NCBI GenBank assembly: GCA_017645945.1
Contig: JAGCNL010000031.1
Location: forward strand, 140,615-204,614
Length of the DNA stretch: 64,000 nt
Direction of reading: 5' to 3'
Source of the DNA: Salinivirgaceae bacterium
GTDB lineage: Bacteria; Bacteroidota; Bacteroidia; Bacteroidales; SZUA-534
This document shows positions 2,058 through 16,542 of the stretch, piece after piece. How positions within the stretch are numbered: the stretch's first letter is position 1; every line of letters begins with the position of its first letter. Under the pieces are notes generated by a model, which was given only the letters and a program-made list of their open reading frames with translations, was not told the origin of the DNA and did no database searches. A program made the translations under genes and the position numbers.

Positions 2058-3797
2058 TTATTGCCTGAAAATGCCTTGCTCATAAAGTTGTTGCGTAACC
2101 TTTGGTGATAATAGATATACGTCTTCCTTATTTATTATAAGAATGGTATTCCAATCAGTTGCATCGCCAATATATAATATCATATTGTCATCACCAGTGC
2201 AACGTATTTCAGGTAGTCGATAACCCGCATTAGGCTTATAAACACCTTCGTATGGTTCTCCGTTAGAGTTTGTTAGAGTATATTTTGTAAAGTTGCCTTG
2301 TATTTGTTCTTTTTTTGGCGTATAAAAAATGACTTTACTACCCTCGATTGAGATTTTCTTAATTACAGGCTTATTTTTATATTCATTAAAAACATTTGAT
2401 AGAAATTGTGTTGTCTCTTCTTCTGCAATCACTTTACCACGTTTTTGGGATAAATCTTTTTCGGCAACATTAAGCATTGTCTGTATGCGGTTTAATTTTG
2501 CTTCGTATTTCCTTAATTCTGCATAAGAATAACTTGACAACAAATCACCACGAAGAGTAATGTCTATATTTTCATAATACGTGAAATCGTTGTCTTCATC
2601 TTCAGAGTCTGGTTCATAATCCATAAACCAGCTTTCAAAGTCACTATACCCATAGTCATCTTTAAGTTTATTAATTCTTCTTTTTATAACTTCTCTATTG
2701 TCGTTTAGTTTGTTATAATAGGTTTTTCGATTGGCATTATATTCCTCACTTGTAAAACAGTGATTTTTCAGTTCATCGCTGATTTCACCATAGCCAAATT
2801 TTATGTCTTTGAAGCATATACGCAATGGTGCAGTTTTAGCCGTTGTTGTGAATTTGGTTTTAAAATAACCAGTTGTTCTACCTTCATATTCTGATTCCAC
2901 TGGAACAATCCATTTGCCATCAACACAAACTTTAGTTACGGTTCCCATCTCATAGTCCTGTGCTCTGTCTATGGGTACAGAACTCACAAGAGAAACTTGA
3001 CCTTTGTATGAATCATCACCATAAATAATTGTAGCAATATATTGTTCTTCGTCTGGGTCATAGTGTGTATTAACAACTTTTTTTGCTGGCGACCCAAAAC
3101 AAATTCCTTTAGCAATTAGTGCGTTACATATGCTATCAAACTTTGCTATACCTTGTGTGTTCAGGCGATTTTGATAATCTATGGTCTTTTCATAGGTTCC
3201 TCGCTTGGCCCATTTTTCGAAATCTTTTCTTACAAGTTGAATCATTTTGTCAATGGTTCCGCCAGTAGGTTTGATTTTGTATTCTCTGGCAATATCCGCT
3301 TGTGTGCGCGTTTTATCAAGTGCATTGCGCTTTTCTTTCCACGAGTTATATATGTCTATTAACGCTCGCCTATAGGAATAATTTTGAATAATATCATAGC
3401 CATAAAAGGTGGTTGAACCTGTACCTGCGGCTTCTATTAGTTCCTCTACATAATACAATTCTCCCAATTTGCCTTCAATATCATTGTTTGTTATTAGTTT
3501 AATTCCAACTAAAGCGAGAAATGCTTCTTTTTCATCACCTAATTTATTCGCCATTTGGTCAATGGTCTCTTCTGCTAATTTGTACCGTTTTTGTTCATAA
3601 GGGGATAGTTGTTGTGCAGAAGCGGATAGTGTCATACTCAAAAACACGCAGCATATGGCTATGGTTTTGGTAAAATTTCTAAACATATAGGCTGTTTTGT
3701 TGCCCGTAGTTTCTGTGGTTAATCGATAACGTGTCATAATGCTATAAATTAAATTGTTAAACAATAAAATACTTCCAACAATCTCACATTTAGGCAT
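2058..3797 (-). CDS. Hypothetical secreted protein (orphan, AT-rich)
   Basis: 579-aa track ORF. The likely real start is ATG 3686-3684 (MFRNFTKTIAICCVFLSMTLSASAQQ, a signal peptide), because the first ATG at 3797 abuts the U-tract of the upstream terminator. I recognise no family. Visibly more AT-rich than the flanking GH genes. Confidence 0.7.
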   Translation of the reverse strand: MPKCEIVGSILLFNNLIYSIMTRYRLTTETTGNKTAYMFRNFTKTIAICCVFLSMTLSASAQQLSPYEQKRYKLAEETIDQMANKLGDEKEAFLALVGIKLITNNDIEGKLGELYYVEELIEAAGTGSTTFYGYDIIQNYSYRRALIDIYNSWKEKRNALDKTRTQADIAREYKIKPTGGTIDKMIQLVRKDFEKWAKRGTYEKTIDYQNRLNTQGIAKFDSICNALIAKGICFGSPAKKVVNTHYDPDEEQYIATIIYGDDSYKGQVSLVSSVPIDRAQDYEMGTVTKVCVDGKWIVPVESEYEGRTTGYFKTKFTTTAKTAPLRICFKDIKFGYGEISDELKNHCFTSEEYNANRKTYYNKLNDNREVIKRRINKLKDDYGYSDFESWFMDYEPDSEDEDNDFTYYENIDITLRGDLLSSYSYAELRKYEAKLNRIQTMLNVAEKDLSQKRGKVIAEEETTQFLSNVFNEYKNKPVIKKISIEGSKVIFYTPKKEQIQGNFTKYTLTNSNGEPYEGVYKPNAGYRLPEIRCTGDDNMILYIGDATDWNTILIINKEDVYLLSPKVTQQLYEQGIFRQ

Positions 3798-3833
3798 AAA
3801 AAAAGCGTGAAACCCGAATTACCCGTTTCACGC
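3798..3833 (-). terminator. Rho-independent terminator
   Basis: On the minus strand: 9-bp stem GCGTGAAAC/GUUUCACGC (plus coords 3825-3833 / 3805-3813), 11-nt loop, then seven U (3804-3798). Confidence 0.7.
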
Positions 3834-4050
3834 ATTGAGGCTCTCGCATTGCCCGATTAGTCGAAACGAGCAATAACGAACCTCACGCCGTTATGATATA
3901 AATACACCACAACACGTAAGCATTCATTATTGCTTTGCATTTGACTAATCAATAGAAACTTGCGAGATTTCAATGCGTCAAAACAAAGCGCAATAAACGC
4001 TTTCAATATGTCTCTCTACAATTCAGTCTCTTGCAAGACAAGAATGCAGA
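3798..4050 (-). ncRNA. Candidate ~250-nt structured RNA (stand-alone sRNA, or attenuator-type leader of the 579-aa gene)
   Basis: Bounded by a TACATTTG promoter motif (4064-4057) and the terminator at 3833-3798. Only a 27-codon ORF lies inside. Nested complementary segments form a ~145-nt imperfect rod:
- 3970-3976 / 3832-3838
- 3961-3966 / 3843-3848
- 3943-3950 / 3855-3862
- 3927-3934 / 3869-3876
- 3915-3920 / 3882-3887
The last helix has one position that is a G-U wobble on the minus strand and a C-A mismatch on the plus strand. Small hairpins also lie at 3985-4003 and 4029-4038. Confidence 0.45.
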
Positions 4051-4300
4051 ACAACACAAATGTATAAAAGTCAATTTGAAAAAAGAAAATGTTTTTGAAT
4101 GTGCGTTATGAAGCACCGTATTGCCACTATTTCACAGCGTTGAGCACGGTTTCGGGCTGCGTTCCCATAAGTGTGATTGCAGAGAGTTTACGGCCAATGT
4201 CTTTTAGCGAGTGGCCGCAGTGGTAAAGGTTGTTATCGACAATGAGCCAGCGGTCGTGCGACGGGGTGGGCCAAATGTGAGTGTCAATCGGCTCAACGCC
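4047..4300 (-). repeat. Direct repeat: near-identical copy of 6171-6424 (gene 3' end + intergenic + promoter cassette)
   Basis: Constant offset of 2124 nt with no indels. I count 5 substitutions by eye over 254 nt. A third, more diverged copy lies at about 5210-5475. Confidence 0.85.
4057..4064 (-). promoter_or_regulatory. Bacteroidetes -7 promoter motif TACATTTG (TAnnTTTG)
   Basis: The plus strand reads CAAATGTA. It is an exact copy of the motif upstream of the three array genes (5220, 6181, 7117). Here no ORF follows it directly, only the structured RNA candidate. Confidence 0.5.
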
Positions 4301-4313
4301 AGCGGCAGAGTTA
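4127..4313 (-). pseudogene. Orphan 3' fragment (~61 codons + stop) of a RhuM/PLD-like-tail paralogue
   Basis: Matches the last ~61 codons of the 6251-7078 gene, including HDRWLIVDNNLYHCGHSLKDIGRK. Its last ~13 nt (4301-4313) match the 5290-6141 copy instead. No N-terminal part or start codon. It begins 21 nt after the stop of the 4335-5198 gene. Confidence 0.75.
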
Positions 4314-4334
4314 GAGAATCATTTCAATTGCGGT

Positions 4335-5198
4335 TTACAATCTCGCCATAATATCGGCAATGAAACTAGAATCGAACAAATCGAAGGCGAAACAGCGCTT
4401 GCCCAAATCTTTAAGCGAAGCGCCAATGTGGTAGAGTGTTTGGTTGTCGATAATCAGAAATCGGTCGTGCATTGCGGTGGTGTGCTTCACTTCGAGTAGC
4501 GGATATTGCGCATTAAAACGCAGAACATCTTGTGTCGTAATAGGCGTTTGCGGAATGGTGTAAATGGTTACCTGCACGCCAGCGTTCTTTTTTGCGAAAC
4601 GTTCAAGAACCGAAAGGTCAATATAATTATCAATCAAAACAATAGACTGTCGTGCTTGTGCAATGAAACTTTCAAATTTCGCGTAAGCGTCGAAAATCTG
4701 CCCTTGAAAAAATATGCCTTGAGTGTCGTCAATCGCATAGCGGTCCATTCGGTCGAAAAGTTCATTAATGCGTTTATCGGATTCAATTCGGTGCATTTCG
4801 AGTGAATCGAGCCGCTGGAAAATCTGGGCGTTGGATAAAAGGAACTTACGCATTGATACAAAAGCCTTTACTATTTGAATACTTGCTTTGACGGCAGTTT
4901 CACTTTTTAAAACAGTGGCAAGCATTGTTACTCCGTGCTCTGTAAACGCGTATGGCTTTTTGCGAAGTCCCATTTTGTCCGAATTGGAAGTCGCAATTTG
5001 CGACTTCCAATTGTGGAATTCGCTGTCGTTCAGTTGAAAACAAAATTCATCTGGAAACCTCTCTATATTTCGCTTCACTTGTTCGTTTAAGCGTTTCGTC
5101 TCCACGCCATACAACTCTGCAATGTCGCGGTCAATCATAACCTGTTGGTTACGAATCACTAATATTTTGTTTTGTATGACTGCTATTTCGTTTGTCAT
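4335..5198 (-). CDS. ORF6N/KilA-N-type DNA-binding domain protein with C-terminal single PLD(HKD)-like domain
   Basis: The track ORF (to 5237) starts at TTG and overlaps the promoter motif, so I use ATG 5198-5196. The head MTNEIAVIQNKILVIRNQQVMIDRDIAELYGVETKRLNEQVKRNIERFPDEFCFQL...KPYAFTEHGVTMLATVLKS fits ORF6N as I recall it. The tail ARQSIVLIDNYID...MHDRFLIIDNQTLYHIGASLKDLGKR fits an HKD-like pattern. Confidence 0.75.
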   Translation of the reverse strand: MTNEIAVIQNKILVIRNQQVMIDRDIAELYGVETKRLNEQVKRNIERFPDEFCFQLNDSEFHNWKSQIATSNSDKMGLRKKPYAFTEHGVTMLATVLKSETAVKASIQIVKAFVSMRKFLLSNAQIFQRLDSLEMHRIESDKRINELFDRMDRYAIDDTQGIFFQGQIFDAYAKFESFIAQARQSIVLIDNYIDLSVLERFAKKNAGVQVTIYTIPQTPITTQDVLRFNAQYPLLEVKHTTAMHDRFLIIDNQTLYHIGASLKDLGKRCFAFDLFDSSFIADIMARL

Positions 5199-5219
5199 TG
5201 GTTTAAACACAAAGCAAGA

Positions 5220-5227
5220 CAAATGTA
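5220..5227 (-). promoter_or_regulatory. -7 promoter motif TACATTTG
   Basis: CAAATGTA on the plus strand, 22 nt upstream of ATG 5198. Confidence 0.5.
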
Positions 5228-5289
5228 TAAAAATCAAGTTGGAAAAGGAAAACGTTTTTGAATGTGCCGCACGAAAGCCCCGCCTGCCA

Positions 5290-6141: not shown

Positions 6142-6180
6142 AAAATCTTGCCCGTCAATGATATTTTGCGCAGAGCAACA

Positions 6181-6188
6181 CAAATGTA
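6181..6188 (-). promoter_or_regulatory. -7 promoter motif TACATTTG
   Basis: CAAATGTA on the plus strand, 40 nt upstream of ATG 6141. Confidence 0.5.
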
Positions 6189-6250
6189 TAAAAGTCAATT
6201 TGAAAAAAGAAAATGTTTTTGAATGTGCGTTATGAAGCACCGTATTGCCA

Positions 6251-7187: not shown

Positions 7188-9134
7188 TTATTTCGTAATC
7201 ACCACACCGCCATTGCACGGAATGGTGATTGCCATTTGCTGTTTCTTGTTTATTTTCAAATCTTTAACGCTACCATTCAAGTTAGCGTCATCGCTGTAAA
7301 GTTTGACGGTCTGATTGGCATCAAACATCGGCAGGTTCAGATTGAGTTTCAGTGGCTCTTTCTGTGCGTTAATGCCCACCACGAACCATTTGTCGGCGTG
7401 GCGGCGCGCAAGAACAGCGTACTTGCCAGGATAGCCGTCGATAAACTTCACTTCGTCCCAAGTTGTCGGCACTTGTTTCATAAAATCGACGGCCCAGGCG
7501 GGTGCGTCGGTAAGGTTGTTCGGCGCCATAGCAAAGTGGTTTACAGCCGTTTGGAACATAACCGAAATGGCCAGCGCAAACACATCGGAAGTGCGGCGGG
7601 TGTTGCCGTGGGTGTTGTCGTAGGCGTAATGCTTGTTGAGCGTGCTGCCGCCCCAGTCCATACTGCCAACGGTGTTGCGAATGAACGGGTGAAGCGTGGC
7701 GCAGAAGGCCTCGTTGTCGCACTCGTTTTGGCCAAAGGCAAGGTTCTCGCTTGCGCGGACGGCCTCACAAGCCGCAAAATTGGGGTACATACGTTCCCAA
7801 CCGCGTGGAAGCGTACATCCGTGGAAAATCACCAGCAGACCGTAGTCGTTGGCGTCGGCCAGAATATCCTCGTAGAGTTGCATCATCGGCTGCTTGTCGC
7901 TGCCAAAGAAATCGACCTTAATTCCGCGAATGCCAATGCTTTGCATCCATTTCATTTCGGCGCGGCGGGTGATTATGTTGTCCATAATTCCGCGTGGCGA
8001 TTGCGGCGCGTCGTTCCAGTAGCCGTTCGAGTTGTACCACAAGTAGATACCAACGTTTTTCTGCTTTCCGTAGTCGGCCAGTTCTTTGATTTTGTCGCGG
8101 CCGATTTGAGTGTCCCAAAGGGCGTCAATCAGCACCGATTCGAAGCCCATTGCAGCCGAAAAATCGATATACTTTTTCTGCACGTCGAAGTTGGTGTTGC
8201 CGTCCATTCCGATAATCCACGACCACGAGCCGCGTCCGTATTGGTATTCCTGCGACGCCTCGTAGAGCGGCTTCACGTAGTCGAAAGCCACTGTTGTCTC
8301 AACAATCGGGGCCAGAGTTTTACCCAAAGTGATTGTGCGCCAAGGTGTTGACGACGGCAATGTGAGTCCAGGTGTCGATGAGCCGAGTCCGTTCATCTCG
8401 CCCTCTTGCGGAAGACCGATAGTGTAGAGTCCGCCGTTGCCGCCCATAAGTCGGCCGCCAAAGTAGCGCCCGTTAACGCCAGTTTCCGAAATCAGAATCC
8501 AACCCTTGTCGGCGTTCTTGAACAAGCACGGGAAGGTGTAGCCTTGTCCCCAGCCGTTCTTTCCAAGTGCGTCATCCACAGTGTAATGCGTCTCGTACGA
8601 CGGTGTGGTGCGCGCAAAACCGCCCATTGGTGTAGCCTGTGGGCAAAGGAACGTTGTGGTGCCTTCGGGCAAACGGAATCCCGACGCTTCCTGCTTTACA
8701 ACACAGCAGAACGTAGGACGCTGTGCCATAAGATTATAGCGGAACACCACATCGCGGTTCGACACGTAGAACTCGACGCTGTAAACGTTTTTGCCGTCTT
8801 TGGCAAAAGTGAAAATGCCGCCGTTGGCCTCAACGTCAATCTTGCTCTGCTTCGAGTTTTTGAGCGTGTAACTGTCGGTGTATTTCAAACCTTCCTTGCT
8901 GTCAGTCAGCGACATACCGTTGGTGAAGTCGCCCAAATCGAGCACCAAACCCAGCGGCGACTGCTCAAGAAACGCCACGCCGTTCAGTTTCACCGAATAC
9001 GACGGCTTGCCATCAGCATCCGACACGGTTACAACTATCTGTCCATCAGGACTTTTAATCTCTTTCTCTGTCGATTGCGCACCAAAGAATCCGCACGCCA
9101 AAACCAGACTTAATAAAACTTTCTTCATTTGCAT
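7188..9134 (-). CDS. Glycoside hydrolase family 97
   Basis: Signal peptide MKKVLLSLVLACGFFGA. IKSPDGQIVVTVSDADGKPSYSVKLNGVAFLEQSPLGLVL is a GH97 N-terminal signature. Also GIRGIKVDFF and FHGCTLPRGWERMYPNFAACEAVRASE. Confidence 0.85.
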   Translation of the reverse strand: MQMKKVLLSLVLACGFFGAQSTEKEIKSPDGQIVVTVSDADGKPSYSVKLNGVAFLEQSPLGLVLDLGDFTNGMSLTDSKEGLKYTDSYTLKNSKQSKIDVEANGGIFTFAKDGKNVYSVEFYVSNRDVVFRYNLMAQRPTFCCVVKQEASGFRLPEGTTTFLCPQATPMGGFARTTPSYETHYTVDDALGKNGWGQGYTFPCLFKNADKGWILISETGVNGRYFGGRLMGGNGGLYTIGLPQEGEMNGLGSSTPGLTLPSSTPWRTITLGKTLAPIVETTVAFDYVKPLYEASQEYQYGRGSWSWIIGMDGNTNFDVQKKYIDFSAAMGFESVLIDALWDTQIGRDKIKELADYGKQKNVGIYLWYNSNGYWNDAPQSPRGIMDNIITRRAEMKWMQSIGIRGIKVDFFGSDKQPMMQLYEDILADANDYGLLVIFHGCTLPRGWERMYPNFAACEAVRASENLAFGQNECDNEAFCATLHPFIRNTVGSMDWGGSTLNKHYAYDNTHGNTRRTSDVFALAISVMFQTAVNHFAMAPNNLTDAPAWAVDFMKQVPTTWDEVKFIDGYPGKYAVLARRHADKWFVVGINAQKEPLKLNLNLPMFDANQTVKLYSDDANLNGSVKDLKINKKQQMAITIPCNGGVVITK

Positions 9135-9196
9135 TGTGTTGATTACGTATTGTTTATAAATAGTGTTAATAGTTTCCCATCATCGATTTGTTAACA

Positions 9197-9204
9197 CAAA
9201 TGTA
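9197..9204 (-). promoter_or_regulatory. -7 promoter motif TACATTTG
   Basis: CAAATGTA on the plus strand, 63 nt upstream of ATG 9134. Confidence 0.4.
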
Positions 9205-9307
9205 ATCAAAATTTTTTATAAAAAGTAAAAAATACTTTTATTCTTTTATTCAAAAAGAAAAAGGTAGTTACCTTACCACCTTTTAACTAACTTTTGGAAA
9301 TAAGTGC

Positions 9308-9330
9308 AAAAAAAAGAGCCTTGCGGCTCT
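9308..9330 (-). terminator. Rho-independent terminator
   Basis: AGAGCC/GGCTCT stem (9315-9320 / 9325-9330), followed on the minus strand by about eight U. Lies 27 nt past the stop at 9357. Confidence 0.6.
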
Positions 9331-9356
9331 CTTTTAAACGTCTGTGTTATAATTGT

Positions 9357-10073
9357 TTATTCTGCGGCTTTTTCACCACCAAACAGATTCTTTGTGATTT
9401 GCTTTCCAGCGGGTGTCGCCTTGTCGGCATCTGACAGGCGTTTGTAGATTTCAGTCATTCTCGGGTAGGTTGGCCAATCGGTGCCTTCGTCGTTGATAAT
9501 GTCCGTGGCATCGGCAAATGCTTCAAGCCAATATTCATCAACAGGCAACGTTTCCATTGCCGTCCAACACGCCTCGTTATATTTTGCTTGCGCCTCGTTA
9601 TATTTTTCAATTAGTTCGGGGCCACCATTGTCTATCGCTTCCGAATGAAGTCTCTCGTATTCAATCTTAATATCTTTGGTTGCATCGTTAAACTTGTTAC
9701 TGAACTGTTGACGGGGATTCTCACTTTCAACAGTCCAGTTTTCAGCATAAAAACCAGAACCTGTGACCGTCGTGTTGTAGCCACTCTTAACATAAATATC
9801 ACGGCCGCTTCCTAAATGGTTGTTTCCATTTCTTGAACTGACACCATAAATTGCTCCCGCGGAATTTGAGCCACAAGTATATGTATAACAAAAAGTTCCA
9901 TTAACTGCAGCGCTGTCAAAAAAAGTTTCGCCTACATCTTCTTCCCATTTGAGAATCTCGATAACCGTTCCTTCGGGAAGGTCGGTAATGTTGAAACTGA
10001 TTGTTGTTTCGGCTTTTTGGCAGGCCGTGAGCGCAATGGCAGCAATGGCCGTCAATAATAAAATGCGTTTCAT
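9357..10073 (-). CDS. Hypothetical lipoprotein
   Basis: MKRILLLTAIAAIALTAC lipobox. I recognise no catalytic motif. Confidence 0.7.
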   Translation of the reverse strand: MKRILLLTAIAAIALTACQKAETTISFNITDLPEGTVIEILKWEEDVGETFFDSAAVNGTFCYTYTCGSNSAGAIYGVSSRNGNNHLGSGRDIYVKSGYNTTVTGSGFYAENWTVESENPRQQFSNKFNDATKDIKIEYERLHSEAIDNGGPELIEKYNEAQAKYNEACWTAMETLPVDEYWLEAFADATDIINDEGTDWPTYPRMTEIYKRLSDADKATPAGKQITKNLFGGEKAAE

Positions 10074-10175
10074 TGGTTTGTTGGTTATTTAAGTGAATAT
10101 AAGGTTGTTACATATCTTACAAAACGCATAAAATGACGTTTTATTGCCAGCAACCCACAAAAGTTTGTTGATTAT

Positions 10176-10298
10176 TTAAATTAATAAAAGTTCGTCAACA
10201 AGAACTGTTCTAATTTCGGTGACTTGGCGAAGTTGCTTGTCGTTAGTCAAAAATGCATCGCACCCGTTTTGAATGGCAATCATTTGAACGCAATTCAT
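10176..10298 (-). pseudogene. C-terminal remnant of a PIN-domain (VapC-like) toxin
   Basis: A frame different from the antitoxin reads MNCVQMIAIQNGCDAFLTNDKQLRQVTEIRTVLVDELLLI*, which resembles the last ~40 aa of PIN toxins. The N-terminal acidic residues are missing. Confidence 0.4.
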
Positions 10299-10488
10299 TT
10301 ACAACACTTTGCGCGTCGGCATTCCAAATATGGGTTGCTGTTTCATATTTCGAGAAGTCAAGTGGCTGCTTTGTTTCGCGCTTTTTCTGCTGATTTTGGA
10401 ACAAAAGGAAATCGATATACGACTCCACATTTTGCTGTTGCATTGCTGTAAGACTGCCTATCTTTTTTTCTAAAACTGCGTATGTCAT
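10243..10488 (-). CDS. Putative type II antitoxin (DUF2281-like), its 3' end fused into the toxin remnant
   Basis: ATG 10488-10486 (the track start at 10503 is TTG). MTYAVLEKKIGSLTAMQQQNVESYIDFLLFQNQQKK...THIWNADAQSVVNELRSND resembles Bacteroidetes antitoxins paired with PIN toxins. The last ~12 codons read through toxin-remnant DNA in another frame. Confidence 0.4.
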   Translation of the reverse strand: MTYAVLEKKIGSLTAMQQQNVESYIDFLLFQNQQKKRETKQPLDFSKYETATHIWNADAQSVVNELRSNDCHSKRVRCIFD

Positions 10489-10584
10489 TTTCTTTCCCTC
10501 CAATTATTTGAGAATCGGAATTGATTCACAATAAGTTTAAATCAATACAAAACTAATAAAAAACAATTATGTTGGTACGCGCAC

Positions 10585-10654
10585 AAAAAAAGAGCCTTTC
10601 GGACTCTCTTTAAAAAAGAAGGAATCGGGCAACCGAAGTTACCTAATTCCTTCT
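10585..10654 (-). terminator. Two tandem rho-independent terminators
   Basis: First: 9-bp stem AGAAGGAAT/ATTCCTTCT (10617-10625 / 10646-10654), then U5 on the minus strand. Second: bulged stem at 10591-10607, then about U6-7 on the minus strand. Both lie just past the stop at 10669. Confidence 0.6.
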
Positions 10655-10668
10655 ATATCAGCGATTGA

Positions 10669-12627
<1,959 letters not shown>

Positions 12628-12690
12628 TTAAAAGTTTAGTGTTATATACGTTTAGAAACATTATTGAATCGGATAATCGATTCTTAAATG

Positions 12691-12698
12691 CAAATATA
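12691..12698 (-). promoter_or_regulatory. -7 promoter motif TATATTTG
   Basis: CAAATATA on the plus strand, 70 nt upstream of ATG 12621. Confidence 0.35.
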
Positions 12699-12718
12699 GC
12701 ATTTCATCAGATAAACCA

Positions 12719-14626
12719 TTACTGCTCCACAATCACAAATCCGCCGCGTGGCAAGCATTTCACCGTTTGTGGCAGATTGTTGGCATCGAGATTTGTTATT
12801 GTCCACGGGCTGTCGGCGTTGCCGCTGTCGGCAAACATTTTGAACTTTCCGCTCTTTATAAAACCAAGATTGACAGCAATTTCGCGCTCGCTGTCGCTAC
12901 CGTTGATTCCAGCCACATACCACTTGCCGTTGCGCTCACGAGCCATCACAACGTATTCGCCAGGATAGCCGCAAACAAGTTTTGTCTCGTCCCAAACGGT
13001 TGGCAGATTGGTAAAGAACTGCTGAACATCAGCAGGTTGTGACAAGTAACTCGACGGGCGGTCAGCAAGGTGCAGCAGTGCCGATTCATAGAGCACCGTC
13101 AGCGCCAACTCGTGGGCGTGAGTTGTTATGTGCGGGAACTGCGAGTCGGTGAAGGTGCAAGGCGTGTAGTCCATTGAGCCCACCACGCCGCGGGTGAACG
13201 GCAGAGTGGCGTTGTGCATTGCGGCCCTGTCGGTCAGGAATGGGGCGTTGTTGTACCATTCGGCACCCATAACTGCTTCTGTACTAACCAGATTCGGGTA
13301 GGTCCGCTGCCAGCCGCGCGGCAGCGTTGCGCCGTGGAAATTGACCAGCAAATGGTGTTTTGCGGCGCTCTCGAGCAGTTCGATGCAATATTGGTTTGTG
13401 CGCTGCTTGTCGCCTTCAAAAAAGTCGATTTTAACGCCAGCAATACCATTGTCTTCCAGCCATTTGAATTCCTTTTCGCGGTCTTCGGCCTTGTTCAGGC
13501 GATATTTCGGTCCAGGGGCGCGGTCAACCCATTTAGTGGTTGAATTATACCACATTAGCAGTTTCACGCCCTTCTGTTTCGCGTAGGCGATGGCTTCGTA
13601 GATGTTGCCGCCGTGCATTTCGTCCCATTCGGCGTCGATGAGCGTGTATGGCAGTTTCAGTTCTGCGGCCATATCAATGTATTGTTTTACAATCTGATAA
13701 TCGCTCGAACCGTGGTTGTAGGCCCAGTAAATCCACGATGCCACACCAGGCTTAATCCATTCATTATCAGCAATTCTGCACGGCGTGCTCACGTCCGTCA
13801 CAAGAGTCGATTCCACCACGTCGGCCAGCGACCCGATGATGGCCACGCGCCACGGCGTCTGCCAGCCGTCGCTCAGCGCAAGGCGGTTTTCGTCGTTTTG
13901 GATTTTGTAACCCGATGCGGCGGTGCTTCTCAAACCAGAACCGCTGTTTTCGCTAGTCATATCTGCTTCTGTAATAAGAATATACAGACCATCTTTCGGC
14001 GCGAAAAGCGACGGGTAACCCCAATGGCAGCCTTCGCGTTCTTTCGGATTCGGCCAGTAAAACTTCTCGTACGAATCGTCGAAGCGCTGCAGCCAGCGTT
14101 TTGCCGAATCAGCAAAATGGTAAGTGGTCTGCTCTTGCAGGAAGTTGCACTCTTTGTAGCCTTTGGCCAGAGCGAAACGGAACGCCACGCCGTCGTTGTA
14201 GGCGCGGACAATCAGGTTTTGCGTGCGGTTGTTGCGGTCAACAAAACTGAAGGTGCGTTCGGTTGCCTGATTGACACAGTGTAACCGCTTGCCCGACAGC
14301 ATCATATAGTTGTCATTTACATCGATGGTCTTCGATGCGTTTTTGTACGACAGAAAAGCGTCAGTTCCTTCGGTGAGACCGAAATTAGGCATCGAAATGA
14401 TTTTATCCCACTCATTGCCTGTCATATAATAGACATTTAGCGAAGGGATGTTGTCAACATTCAATTCGCATTGAAAACGGATTTTGCCGTTGGGCGATGT
14501 CAGGCCCAATTTTTGGTCGAACTTGCCGTCAGCGGCACTCGACGCGCCCAACAGTGCAACTATCAGGCACACAGCCGATAAGATGATGCACGCAAGAGCA
14601 CAAATCAGAAGAGAGCGTTTGTTCAT
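12719..14626 (-). CDS. Glycoside hydrolase family 97
   Basis: N-terminal membrane anchor/signal. GIAGVKIDFFEGD and FHGATLPRGWQRTYPNLVSTEAVMGAEWYN. Paralogue of the next gene. Confidence 0.8.
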   Translation of the reverse strand: MNKRSLLICALACIILSAVCLIVALLGASSAADGKFDQKLGLTSPNGKIRFQCELNVDNIPSLNVYYMTGNEWDKIISMPNFGLTEGTDAFLSYKNASKTIDVNDNYMMLSGKRLHCVNQATERTFSFVDRNNRTQNLIVRAYNDGVAFRFALAKGYKECNFLQEQTTYHFADSAKRWLQRFDDSYEKFYWPNPKEREGCHWGYPSLFAPKDGLYILITEADMTSENSGSGLRSTAASGYKIQNDENRLALSDGWQTPWRVAIIGSLADVVESTLVTDVSTPCRIADNEWIKPGVASWIYWAYNHGSSDYQIVKQYIDMAAELKLPYTLIDAEWDEMHGGNIYEAIAYAKQKGVKLLMWYNSTTKWVDRAPGPKYRLNKAEDREKEFKWLEDNGIAGVKIDFFEGDKQRTNQYCIELLESAAKHHLLVNFHGATLPRGWQRTYPNLVSTEAVMGAEWYNNAPFLTDRAAMHNATLPFTRGVVGSMDYTPCTFTDSQFPHITTHAHELALTVLYESALLHLADRPSSYLSQPADVQQFFTNLPTVWDETKLVCGYPGEYVVMARERNGKWYVAGINGSDSEREIAVNLGFIKSGKFKMFADSGNADSPWTITNLDANNLPQTVKCLPRGGFVIVEQ

Positions 14627-14667
14627 AGCGAATCGAATTTAATTTGTTTATATCAATTCATTGATTA

Positions 14668-16542
14668 TCAATCGTTTTGCGCGATTACAAATCCGCCGCG
14701 TGGCAGCATTTTCACCGTTTTCGGCAGGCTGTTGGCGTCGATATTTGAGATTGCCCACGGACTGTCGGCATTGCCGCTGTCAGCGAACATCGTGAACTTG
14801 CCGTCTTTAATAAAATCAAGATTCACAGCAATTTCGCGCTTGTTATCGGTGCCGTTTATGCCAGCGACAAACCACTTGCCGTTGCATTCGCGTGCAATAA
14901 CCACATAATCAGCAGGATATCCACCAACAAATTTCGTATCATTCCACGCTGCAGGAAGTTGTCCGAAGAAATCCTGAACTTCTTTCGGCTGTGCCAGAAG
15001 GCTTTCGGGGCGGTCGGCAAGGTGCTGCAAACCAGACTCATAGAGCACCGTCAACGCCAGTTCGTGAGCGTTCGACGTAATGTGCGGGTTCTGCGAATCG
15101 GAAAAAGCGCAAGGCGTGTAGTCCATCGAGCCGACAACGTTGCGGGTAAACGGCAGCGTGGCATTGTGAGCGGCGGCCTTGTTGGTGAAGGTAGGCCCGT
15201 TGTTGTACCATTCGGCACCGTAAACCGCCTCTGTGCTCAACAGATTGGGATAGGTGCGCTGCCATCCGCGCGGAAGCGTGGCACCGTGGAAATTAACCGT
15301 AAGGTGGTGTTTTGCAGCCGATTGCAGAAGGTCGATACAATAGTTCATATTGAATTGGTTGTCGCCCGAGAAGAAGTCGATTTTCACGCCAGCAACCCCG
15401 ATTTTTTCGAGCCAAGCGAACTCTTTCTCACGGTCTTCGGGCTTGTTCAGGCGGAACTTCGGACCAGGCGCGCCGTCAATCCAGCCAATCGACGAACTAT
15501 ACCAAATCAGCGGCTTGACATTGTGGTCGACGGCATATTTTACGGCGTCCTCAATGGTCTTGCCGTTTTTCATCTCGTCCCATTCGGCATCGATTAGCAT
15601 ATACGGAAGTTTCAGACTGACAGCCAAATCCACATATTTTTTGATAATCTCGTAGTCGTTCGAGCCGTGATTGTAGGCCCAGTAAATCCACGAAACCACA
15701 CCAGGCTCAATCCACGAAACATCGTCCAACTTGCAGTTTGTGGCCACATCGGTAATCAGTGTAGATTCCACAATATCAGCAAGATTGCCAATAACAGCCA
15801 CGCGCCACGGCGTCAGGTACGAGCCAGTGATTTCGGTCTCGTTCTTGTCGGGGCGGACGTTGAAAATCTCGATGTTGTCGCCGTCGTTCCAAAGGCACGA
15901 AGCGCTGTTGTCGGCGCCCACGCCCGATTCGCTCAAAAGCACGAAAACGCTGTCCGACGGCTGCATAAGCGCAGGGTACGACCAGCGGCAGCACCAGCCG
16001 TTTTTCACGAAAGTGCCCGAAAAACTGAACACTGCCTTTTGCTTTGCTGTGGTGTCGGGTGTGAAAAATCCTTCGTACGACTCGGCCCACTGCATAAACC
16101 AGCGGCGCGTGCCTTCCTGAATCTCGTAAGATGTTAATTCTGTGGGGATTGCCATTGCTTCGGCCACGTTGTGGAACTGATAGCGGAAGGCGATTCCGTT
16201 GTTATAGACGCGGAAAATAAGGTCGGTGTTCGCGTCCAGCGCGGCCGTGTACTCGTTGGCCTGATTAGTGCAGTGCGAGCGTTTGCCCATAAGCATTGTG
16301 TAGTCGGCGTTCACCGCTTGCGCGAATTTCAGTTTGGGTGCGGCGGCAAGGCTGTCGTAGCCGAATCGGGCGATTGTAAGTGCGTCATTATCAAGAAATT
16401 TGACAAGATACTTGCCCGCTTCGGCGTAAACGGTTATCCGTCCGTCGGGCGAAACCGCAACTTGCTCTTTTTTTGAATTGCAACTTACTGAAATCAAGGC
16501 GATTGCAATCGCAAACAACGATATGGCACTGCGTCTTTTCAT
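14668..16542 (-). CDS. Glycoside hydrolase family 97
   Basis: Lipobox LISVSC. AVSPDGRITVY, GVAGVKIDFFSGD and FHGATLPRGWQRTYPNLLSTEAVYGAEWYN. Confidence 0.8.
   Translation of the reverse strand: MKRRSAISLFAIAIALISVSCNSKKEQVAVSPDGRITVYAEAGKYLVKFLDNDALTIARFGYDSLAAAPKLKFAQAVNADYTMLMGKRSHCTNQANEYTAALDANTDLIFRVYNNGIAFRYQFHNVAEAMAIPTELTSYEIQEGTRRWFMQWAESYEGFFTPDTTAKQKAVFSFSGTFVKNGWCCRWSYPALMQPSDSVFVLLSESGVGADNSASCLWNDGDNIEIFNVRPDKNETEITGSYLTPWRVAVIGNLADIVESTLITDVATNCKLDDVSWIEPGVVSWIYWAYNHGSNDYEIIKKYVDLAVSLKLPYMLIDAEWDEMKNGKTIEDAVKYAVDHNVKPLIWYSSSIGWIDGAPGPKFRLNKPEDREKEFAWLEKIGVAGVKIDFFSGDNQFNMNYCIDLLQSAAKHHLTVNFHGATLPRGWQRTYPNLLSTEAVYGAEWYNNGPTFTNKAAAHNATLPFTRNVVGSMDYTPCAFSDSQNPHITSNAHELALTVLYESGLQHLADRPESLLAQPKEVQDFFGQLPAAWNDTKFVGGYPADYVVIARECNGKWFVAGINGTDNKREIAVNLDFIKDGKFTMFADSGNADSPWAISNIDANSLPKTVKMLPRGGFVIAQND

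Follow-up and report, generated by a model that had tools for sequence, protein, structure and literature searches.

The locus described here lies in a 64,000-nucleotide stretch of contig JAGCNL010000031.1 from a Salinivirgaceae bacterium, called the window below. Downstream of an array of RhuM and ORF6N/Rha genes and upstream of a gene for a predicted secreted protein, about 250 nucleotides (nt) carry no conserved open reading frame (ORF). They are framed by a promoter and an intrinsic terminator and fold into a long rod. This element, the rod leader, and its relation to the downstream gene are the subject of this analysis. The features are given in the order of transcription. Coordinates are those of the window, and the unit and all relevant genes are on the minus strand.

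4095–4057, minus strand: promoter of the unit, with the −7 box TACATTTG at 4064–4057 and a conserved upstream segment (AAAACATTTTC...) reaching to about 4095
4050–4015, minus strand: P1, a 5′ hairpin from local folds, with a GCAA tetraloop in the window and a sequence that varies in the family
4003–3985, minus strand: P2, a small hairpin, AAAGCG(U)-loop-(G)CGCUUU, whose 3′ arm overlaps X0
3988–3981, minus strand: X0, CUUUGUUU, the 5′ flank of the rod, complementary to X′ (terminator 5′ arm and start of the loop); candidate antiterminator extension
3978–3970, minus strand: 5′ strand of helix A, ACGCAUUGA, with its partner at 3838–3830
3969–3968 and 3967–3961, minus strand: AA bulge and 5′ strand of helix B, UCUCGCA, the latter with its partner at 3848–3842
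3960–3849, minus strand: upper rod, with the internal-loop segments Y (3945–3928), X (3875–3860) and GGGCAA (3854–3849) and the apex at about 3925–3880
3848–3842, 3841–3839 and 3838–3830, minus strand: 3′ strand of helix B, GCC bulge and 3′ strand of helix A
3833–3798, minus strand: intrinsic terminator, with the 5′ arm at 3833–3825, an 11-nt loop at 3824–3814, the 3′ arm at 3813–3805 and U7 at 3804–3798
3797–3738, minus strand: spacer of 60 nt between U-run and start codon in the 5′ untranslated region (UTR), without a −7 box and with UUGGAA at 3778–3773
3737–2058, minus strand: putatively gated gene for a 559-aa protein with the signal peptide ...LSMTLSASA/QQ

The −7 box, the lack of a gene behind this promoter and the strong terminator with a 9-bp stem and U7 were found as an earlier note, made from this DNA alone, had described them. 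The long, nested and imperfect hairpin proposed there was also seen; it spans 3978–3830. The 266-nt stretch folds at −102.4 kcal/mol. Dinucleotide shuffles (n = 200) reached −65.7 ± 4.3 kcal/mol and none was as good (z = −8.64). The fold of a homologue (L005) has a z-score of −8.1. At the base of the rod, the invariant AA (3969–3968) faces GCC (3841–3839), and the conserved internal loop above helix B consists of AGUUUCU and GGGCAA. The terminator arms (GCGTGAAAC and GTTTCACGC) form a hairpin of −12.3 kcal/mol, which is G+C-rich and immediately followed by the U-run, as is typical for intrinsic terminators. A generic terminator scan does not list it because the scan allows loops of 3–8 nt. The covariation-supported helix A overlaps the terminator stem by four nt (3833–3830), not by the two nt previously assigned to the outer helix. 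In the equilibrium fold of the terminated full-length RNA, the 5′ AAAGCG pairs with the 3′ ACGCUUU end and closes the molecule to a panhandle.

The unit is part of a family, of which over 140 homologues were identified, distributed over Prevotella, Segatella, Muribaculaceae, Bacteroidaceae and related genomes and metagenomes. A degenerate pattern for the 5′ part detected 45 loci in bacterial and archaeal genomes sampled with one genome per species. Nearly all are labelled Bacteroidales: Prevotella, Segatella copri, Palleniella muris, Muribaculaceae, Paludibacteraceae and many metagenome-assembled genomes (MAGs) from rumen and gut. Three loci carry other labels, namely Anaerovoracaceae, Bacillota and Salinivirgaceae. 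Because L030 is nearly identical to L062, a locus on a contig labelled Bacteroides, L030 may be mis-binned. An independent pattern for the 3′ part yielded at least 120 metagenome loci. Among the metagenome matches listed, 98 also had the 5′ block; 14, most of them at the end of a contig, had just the 3′ block, and 7 were chance matches. These listed matches are the metagenome set. Family members are 250–390 nt long, and their core is about 90% conserved across families. Searches with hidden Markov models (HMMs) gave one copy per locus and no arrays, and exactly one unit in the 64-kb window. A genome can have more than one copy (RUG13583, RGIG2154). The window, itself a member of the seed alignment, scores 54.9 bits with the HMM of the 5′ block and 59.3 bits with that of the 3′ block. 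All blocks of the family align in the window: P2, X0 (CUUUGUUYUUGAC), helix A–AA–helix B...GGGCA...helix B′–GCC–helix A′, the terminator with ACGRG at the start of the loop, and the U-run.

Other forms of the element also occur. Partial copies (L089 10818–10908, L135 9816–9899 and L173 3846–3932) consist of the 3′ half of the rod and the terminator, with unrelated sequence in place of the 5′ half. Contig JAFQUE010000094.1 has identical leader copies of 345 nt on opposite strands (L039 7638–7982 and L064 6777–7121).

The closest relative, L001 from another genome, has the same unit with 92% identity over the RNA. Its homology to the window begins at about 4095, just 5′ of the promoter. L001 has a Fic gene in place of the RhuM/ORF6N array and has kept promoter and RNA, so the promoter belongs to the RNA unit. 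The earlier note had called it an array promoter. Copies do precede the array genes, but the promoter is not a property of the array. Within the family, 86 of 132 members have TAnnTTTG at a distance of 49–67 nt on the 5′ side of P2.

A scan of the whole window with Rfam 15 at the gathering threshold matched no family. For 3500–4400 at E ≤ 10, the scan returned two chance-level matches only, with 15.3 and 14.6 bits compared with thresholds of 86 and 180. This agrees with the earlier note, in which the RNA was not recognised as 6S, SRP, RNase P, tmRNA or a known riboswitch. Phage and plasmid collections had no match in BLASTN searches. A loose 19-base pattern gave 10 chance matches in viral contigs, all within G+C-rich tail-fibre genes of phages; these were set aside in favour of a stricter pattern. 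Strings of the core sequence had no match in the searchable full-text literature. They were also absent from the supplements of a Segatella copri transcriptome preprint and from 200 of the 408 supplementary files of a human-microbiome structured-RNA survey, the part of the survey covered. The RNA of the window is a member of a large family for which no description was found in Rfam or in the searched literature.

The conserved structure was defined in an alignment of 41 sequences (A3) by a model of 35 pairs, comprising P2, X0:X′, helix A, helix B and the Y:X helix. In this alignment, 98.1% of the cells are paired, compared with 90.4% in column shuffles and 38–47% in slid registers. The model has 17 compensatory pairs with 137 compensatory cells. 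On four of five measures, none of 500 shuffles reached the observed value. The homologous loci, which the earlier note had named as the place to look for covariation, thus show abundant compensatory changes. Canonical pairs account for 98% in P2, 100% in helix A, 99% in helix B and 99% in X0:X′; the Y:X helix is 93% paired and has compensatory changes. In the larger set of 132 sequences, the values are 97.7% for helix A, 99.7% for helix B and 97.4% for X0:X′. Helix A has up to six pair types per column, helix B compensatory changes in six of seven pairs, and X0:X′ alternates between UA/UG/CG and CG/UG/UA at two columns. The AA bulge is invariant in the alignment. About 100 conserved nt lie in internal loops and bulges (AA/GCC, GGGCA, GCUCGUU and others). 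At least four T follow the terminator 3′ arm in 125 of 132 members.

The 5′ hairpin and the apex are different. A hairpin is present at the place of P1 in nearly all members. A GNRA loop was found in only 12 of 41, and a GNRA tetraloop on P1 as a conserved tertiary contact was dropped as a candidate. The apex of the rod (about 3925–3880) is hypervariable. It is probably a dispensable, free-evolving spacer hairpin, since the conserved 5′ and 3′ blocks lie as little as 44 nt and as much as 132 nt apart in different members. Loci with about 50% identical proteins are about 90–95% identical in promoter, hairpin base, terminator and 60-nt spacer, and their hairpin tips are unrelated in sequence and length.

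The mismatches reveal the strand that folds. In the 132 sequences, cells with G-U outnumber cells with A-C by 88 to 5 in helices A and B, by 142 to 6 in P2 and by 511 to 10 in X0:X′. Pairing therefore takes place on the transcribed strand. The window has its own example in the helix of 3920–3915 with 3887–3882. As previously claimed, one of its pairs exists on the minus strand only: U3918-G3884 would be A-C on the plus strand. A double-stranded DNA inverted repeat or an invertible segment was discarded, as the mismatches are G-U on one strand and the promoter is located outside the repeat.

The terminator competes with an extension of the rod for one strand. X′ (3833–3822, GCGUGAAACGGG) has two possible partners, 3988–3970 or 3813–3805. 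Backward pairing comprises 4 bp of helix A and then X0 across a 2-nt bulge. Helix A shares 3833–3830 with the terminator 5′ arm, and the extension of 5–8 pairs (3988–3981 with 3829–3822) uses the rest of the arm. Forward pairing gives the terminator. The competing strands are near-copies: GUUUUGACGC in helix A 5′ strand plus X0, and GUUUCACGC at 3813–3805, with the family consensus GUUCUUGACGY and GUUCC(U)ACGC. Choosing between them thus amounts to a strand exchange at almost equal energy. For an energy comparison, the RNA was folded up to the end of the 3′ arm, with the terminator enforced or with the 3′ arm kept single-stranded. The energy with terminator minus the energy without is +1.4 kcal/mol in the window and −0.2 kcal/mol on average in the 41 members (range −3.9 to +4.3). 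As long as the 3′ arm has not yet been transcribed, prefix folds of most members show X′ paired with X0; in the window, this pairing is part of the minimum free energy (MFE) structure. A mutually exclusive helix on one terminator strand, characteristic of attenuation leaders, is thus present. The balance is kept across differing apexes. This is what an expression platform needs and is otherwise hard to explain.

Several layers of mutually complementary segments were observed (X0, Y, X, X′, X″ and X‴). An early hairpin of X0 and Y is about 95% complementary and appears in prefix folds, without compensatory changes. It was set aside as a conserved helix and left as a possible folding intermediate.

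Downstream of the U-run, the start codon had to be reassigned. The earlier note had the U-run abutting the first ATG of a 579-aa ORF. The ATG at 3797 does abut the U-run, but it is not the start codon: in L001, L010, L012 and L013, it is followed by TAA. The conserved start is the ATG at 3737, 60 nt further downstream, and the protein has 559 aa, not 579. It is 92% identical to the protein of L001. Its family is rare, with 14 clusters in a search of 5.8 billion proteins. The protein had no match in Pfam or NCBIfam. An AlphaFold2 model with a predicted local distance difference test (pLDDT) score of 72 had no fold match in the PDB at E < 0.3.

The position of the downstream gene is nearly constant. 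A same-strand ORF starts 30–140 nt after the U-run in nearly all genome loci for which this sequence is at hand, mostly after 44–75 nt. Among the metagenome matches listed, 81 of 88 loci have a same-strand ORF, at a median offset of 70 nt. TAnnTTTG is present in only 2 of 43 spacers, so downstream genes apparently rely on the leader promoter and on read-through. The 60-nt spacer contains the palindrome TTGTTTAACAA and is very highly conserved in the window, L001, L010, L012 and L013, with about 95% identity even between loci whose proteins share about 50%. Most spacers have a small hairpin 15–30 nt before the start codon. Close relatives differ in its stem and retain its G-rich loop (UGGGGACUG-like). 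The region of this loop has its complement in the terminator 3′ arm together with the 3′ part of the terminator loop. Duplexes of cognate spacers and 3′ arms have a mean energy of −12.1 kcal/mol, compared with −9.5 kcal/mol for non-cognate combinations; 0 of 5000 permutations were as low. The fixed relation to a gene and the covariation with the UTR would not be expected for a stand-alone small RNA (sRNA) gene.

The genes behind the leader are diverse. In genome loci and the metagenome matches listed, 124 downstream proteins form 75 clusters, 57 of them singletons. Recurrent are giant leucine-rich repeat proteins of the BspA type (10 loci), UpxY-family NusG paralogues (8), the 560-aa family (7) and Acyl_transf_3 (6), further LytTR, a small helix-turn-helix (HTH) protein and lipoproteins with RHS-like repeats. 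Single cases are a GDSL hydrolase, an outer membrane beta-barrel, Sel1, TerD, DUF4007 and a sulfatase, next to many unknowns. By kind, the products include BspA-like adhesins, O-acetyltransferases and small regulators, and some leaders head operons that begin with UpxY. About 52% of the downstream proteins have N-termini of the signal-peptide, lipoprotein or membrane type. The sole loose theme is accessory genes, often for the cell surface or envelope. An RNA specific to the gene family of the window was rejected: this family has 14 protein clusters, whereas 75 unrelated clusters stand behind the RNA. The gating of a secreted-protein gene, one of the options in the earlier note, is supported, though it is not restricted to this gene, as the same leader precedes dozens of unrelated genes. 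The 560-aa family, for its part, was examined in seven independent genomic contexts, and all seven have the leader or a divergent form of it upstream. Its neighbours vary and include a Fic gene, T5orf172, HSDR_N_2 and unrelated housekeeping genes.

The divergent form was compared by eye. This shorter subtype (L007 200–480 and L016 2680–2900) keeps the core of helix A, AA, helix B and GCC (AAGUCUGGUAAAUUUUAA / UUUACCAGAGCCUUCGG) and was not detected by the family HMMs. Leader and 560-aa gene are separated by two inserted genes, one for an HTH protein and one for T5orf172. L007 has no local terminator hairpin; the segment before its U-run (CGAAAACGACGAGCGC) instead has its complement in the 3′ arm of the rod tip.

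The leader has a fixed chromosomal position between conserved flanks in one clade of Bacteroidaceae MAGs (L033, L037, L038, L048, L051, L052, L054, L066, L040 and L064). A predicted amidohydrolase gene is located upstream and three conserved genes downstream. Depending on the genome, the cargo in between is an acyltransferase, one of various lipoproteins, a 1423-aa adhesin-like protein, HTH plus two genes, or a GDSL hydrolase. With the same flanks and different cargo, the leader heads a hypervariable gene slot.

Taken together, the rod leader is probably a cis-acting conditional intrinsic terminator before the downstream gene, tuned by an effector or dependent on a factor. The earlier note had left open whether the unit is a stand-alone sRNA or an attenuator-like leader. 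The leader is favoured because the downstream gene is co-oriented, close and without a promoter, because the terminator strand is shared with a helix of nearly equal energy and because the 5′ UTR covaries; a stand-alone sRNA is less likely. The structure, its covariation, the competing helices and the architecture of the family carry this reading. From them, we infer that termination is modulated in cells, with a default state and an effector.

The following course of events is proposed. Transcription would start within a few nt downstream of the −7 box, and the growing transcript would fold into P1, P2 and the long rod, with a conserved base and a freely evolving tip. X′ could then pair backward with helix A 5′ strand and X0. 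The rod would be extended, the U-run would lack its hairpin and the polymerase would read through into the gene. Alternatively, X′ could pair forward with 3813–3805. The terminator would form and release a rod-like RNA of about 250 nt. A binder of the conserved rod base could tip the choice. The candidate effectors comprise a small molecule as signal of a global state, an RNA-binding protein, and a specialised NusG/UpxY-type elongation factor acting along with NusA-dependent pausing. Purely kinetic control via pausing is a further option. After read-through, the G-rich segment of the 5′ UTR may pair with the freed terminator 3′ arm.

A protein or an elongation factor as effector would fit the diversity of the targets, the surface theme, the loci in which UpxY follows and the opsX-like hairpin before the start codon. 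In 8 of about 125 loci, the first gene behind the leader is of the UpxY family (NCBIfam NF033644, 139 bits); the window is not one of them. A NusG paralogue is missing from the neighbourhood of most loci, that of the window included. In L061, L068 and L069 (Prevotella sp. B2-R-102 and Segatella copri), the leader is followed by the UpxY-family gene and a gene for a ClpB/ClpV-like AAA+ ATPase of 753 aa. In the same loci, ORFs resembling group II intron reverse transcriptases were seen by eye within about 1.5 kb upstream of the leader.

A wider role is a tentative thought, which we consider unlikely. The rod leader may be a 'licence plate' read by a trans-acting system dedicated to it in Prevotellaceae, Bacteroidaceae and Muribaculaceae. 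Such a system, perhaps a NusG/UpxY-type elongation factor, another RNA-binding protein or a global small-molecule signal, would co-switch a set of horizontally exchanged accessory genes, mostly for surface-exposed products. Only a factor-modified polymerase or RNA would pass the built-in terminator, and the leader could also serve as a homology arm for cargo swaps in a fixed chromosomal slot. If true, this would be a recombinase-free functional analogue of the expression platform of integrons.

Several observations weigh against a conditional terminator. In 34 of 41 members, the MFE structure of the full terminated RNA lacks the canonical terminator, so termination would need to be kinetic. 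The terminator loop is long, with 11–17 nt in the family, and long terminator loops usually lower termination efficiency. X0:X′ consists mostly of G-U with few double changes. A second segment, X (GCUCGUUUC, rod 3′ arm), is also complementary to X′, with 95% canonical pairs and four compensatory pairs. The exact antiterminator is therefore ambiguous. The X:X′ pairing needs an open lower rod and could be part of an alternative conformer with three hairpins, including the early X0:Y hairpin. The spacer of the window has no excess complementarity to its own 3′ arm (−8.6 compared with −9.2 kcal/mol); its match consists of 5 bp at UUGGAA, 3778–3773. A rod is an atypical shape for an aptamer. The downstream genes have no common pathway, the theme by which metabolite riboswitches are known. 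Metabolite riboswitches rarely have such cargo, and no ligand is suggested by it.

The diversity of the cargo is better suited to a generic expression module than to a specific sensor. The leader could thus be a constitutive 5′ UTR element that senses nothing, either a fixed partial terminator that damps acquired genes, or a structure for stabilisation or processing, such as a substrate of RNase III or RNase E. Cleavage of the long double-stranded rod by RNase III is plausible, and a place at the head of a hypervariable slot agrees with such a module. About 100 conserved nt in loops and bulges and a near-isoenergetic strand exchange in 41 members exceed what this element would need. It is improbable on these grounds.

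Ranking behind it, a stand-alone trans-acting structured RNA is doubtful as well. The terminated rod of about 250 nt would be the product and act as an sRNA, a protein sponge or in a 6S-like manner. The unit has its own promoter and terminator, and the terminated RNA is a closed rod, probably resistant to nucleases. Sequence conservation across genera is very high, and some genomes have several copies. An independent unit would hardly keep the near-invariant orientation and spacing to the next gene, which itself lacks a promoter. For an independent RNA, the covariation of the sequence behind the terminator with the terminator 3′ arm is equally unexpected, and the poised alternative pairing of the terminator arm would be purposeless. 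The distribution is patchy and in accessory regions, not that of a housekeeping RNA.

A recombination or integration site at the DNA level, either a folded single strand resembling attC or a homology handle, is very unlikely. The shape is similar to attC, with a conserved base, extrahelical bases and a variable tip, and the cargo varies immediately downstream at one chromosomal site. A single DNA strand in folded form would likewise agree with the strand-specific G-T asymmetry. On the other side are the single copy per locus without arrays, the lack of a recombinase family recurring among the upstream neighbours of family loci, and a promoter and a U-run terminator at fixed distances. Competing helices and UTR covariation make sense in RNA only.

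Least credible of all is a decayed coding region, the outcome by which the earlier note would have been disproved, or a leader-peptide attenuator: the window has a TTG-started ORF of 49 codons (4006–3857) and many members an open frame across the conserved 5′ half, but start codons, mostly TTG or GTG, fall in different columns without conservation, frames split into 24, 11 and 6 members with the window in a minority frame, single-nucleotide indels are tolerated, and substitutions follow paired helices, not codons.

A conditional terminator thus remains the preferred reading, and it can be compared with known systems. T-box and cyclic di-GMP-I leaders are similar in having their own promoter, a covarying domain, a basal helix sharing a terminator strand, balanced states and a co-oriented gene. 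Their sensor is a multi-helix junction, whereas the rod leader is a single long rod with a hypervariable tip, precedes genes without a common pathway and has no Rfam match. RfaH with ops/JUMPstart, UpxY with opsX (PMC11685472) and the LoaP hairpin (PMC12691694) likewise concern leaders of accessory, often surface or acquired operons and deal with termination. The opsX pause hairpins resemble the small hairpin 15–30 nt before the start codon. The opsX elements are short pause sites with pause hairpins, and a rod RNA of 250–390 nt is not described there (PMC11685472). EAR and put RNAs are also structured leader RNAs that influence termination, in surface-polymer operons. They modify the polymerase to ignore downstream terminators, whereas the terminator of the rod leader is built in and competes for its strand. 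The Rfam scan of 3500–4400 gave no sequence or model similarity to EAR.

Two further classes share the outline of the molecule. 6S and SRP RNAs have a long imperfect hairpin, paired ends, their own promoter and a terminator. 6S RNA has a large central bubble and a single housekeeping locus, in contrast to the small internal loops, patchy accessory loci and coupled gene of the rod leader. The Rfam models for 6S and 6S-Flavo had no match in the window, and the features of 6S were not found. Integron attC sites share the imperfect hairpin with conserved base, bulged bases and variable tip, and the variable neighbour genes. They form arrays at the 3′ ends of cassettes and come with an integrase. 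The rod leader is located upstream of its gene, flanked by promoter and terminator, with one copy per locus and no recombinase recurring among the upstream neighbours, and by these features does not belong to the attC sites. Most likely, the principle is the known one of the terminator/antiterminator leader, in an unusual form: a rod sensor with a free tip, strand exchange in several layers, pairing with the UTR and a position at the head of a gene slot.

Upstream of the leader, the array of the window comprises RhuM (7168–6251), RhuM (6240–5290) and ORF6N/Rha (5237–4335) genes on the minus strand; a GH97 gene (7188–9134) precedes it. The paralogues share a C-terminal domain of about 100 aa. 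Each array gene is followed by a repeat of about 300 nt, consisting of the 3′ end of the gene and the promoter, with promoter copies at 5210–5260 and 6171–6220. The last copy of the repeat (4047–4346) has a gene-end fragment and the promoter only; 4130–4319 is the leftover 3′ end of a fourth copy. The surroundings resemble a polysaccharide-utilisation region, with a glycoside-hydrolase-like gene at 1–1700 (identified by eye), two GH97 genes and a SASA/esterase gene (7188–16542). The leader, the putatively gated gene and the RhuM/ORF6N array look like an insertion into this region.

Prevotella, Segatella and related Bacteroidales dominate many gut communities of humans, rodents and ruminants. 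To our knowledge, little is known about RNA-based regulation in Bacteroidales of the Prevotella/Segatella type. The rod leader adds an orphan class of riboswitch-like RNAs, for which many sequences are available and whose helices are clear and open to testing. Cultivable carriers are Segatella copri AF10-17, Palleniella muris NM73_A23, Prevotella sp. AGR2160 and Prevotella sp. B2-R-102. The leader is a marker of a hypervariable gene slot and offers a hypothesis for the control of a host over newly acquired genes. If it acts as a switch, surface variation would come under control at a common point, which would bear on interactions with phages and the immune system.

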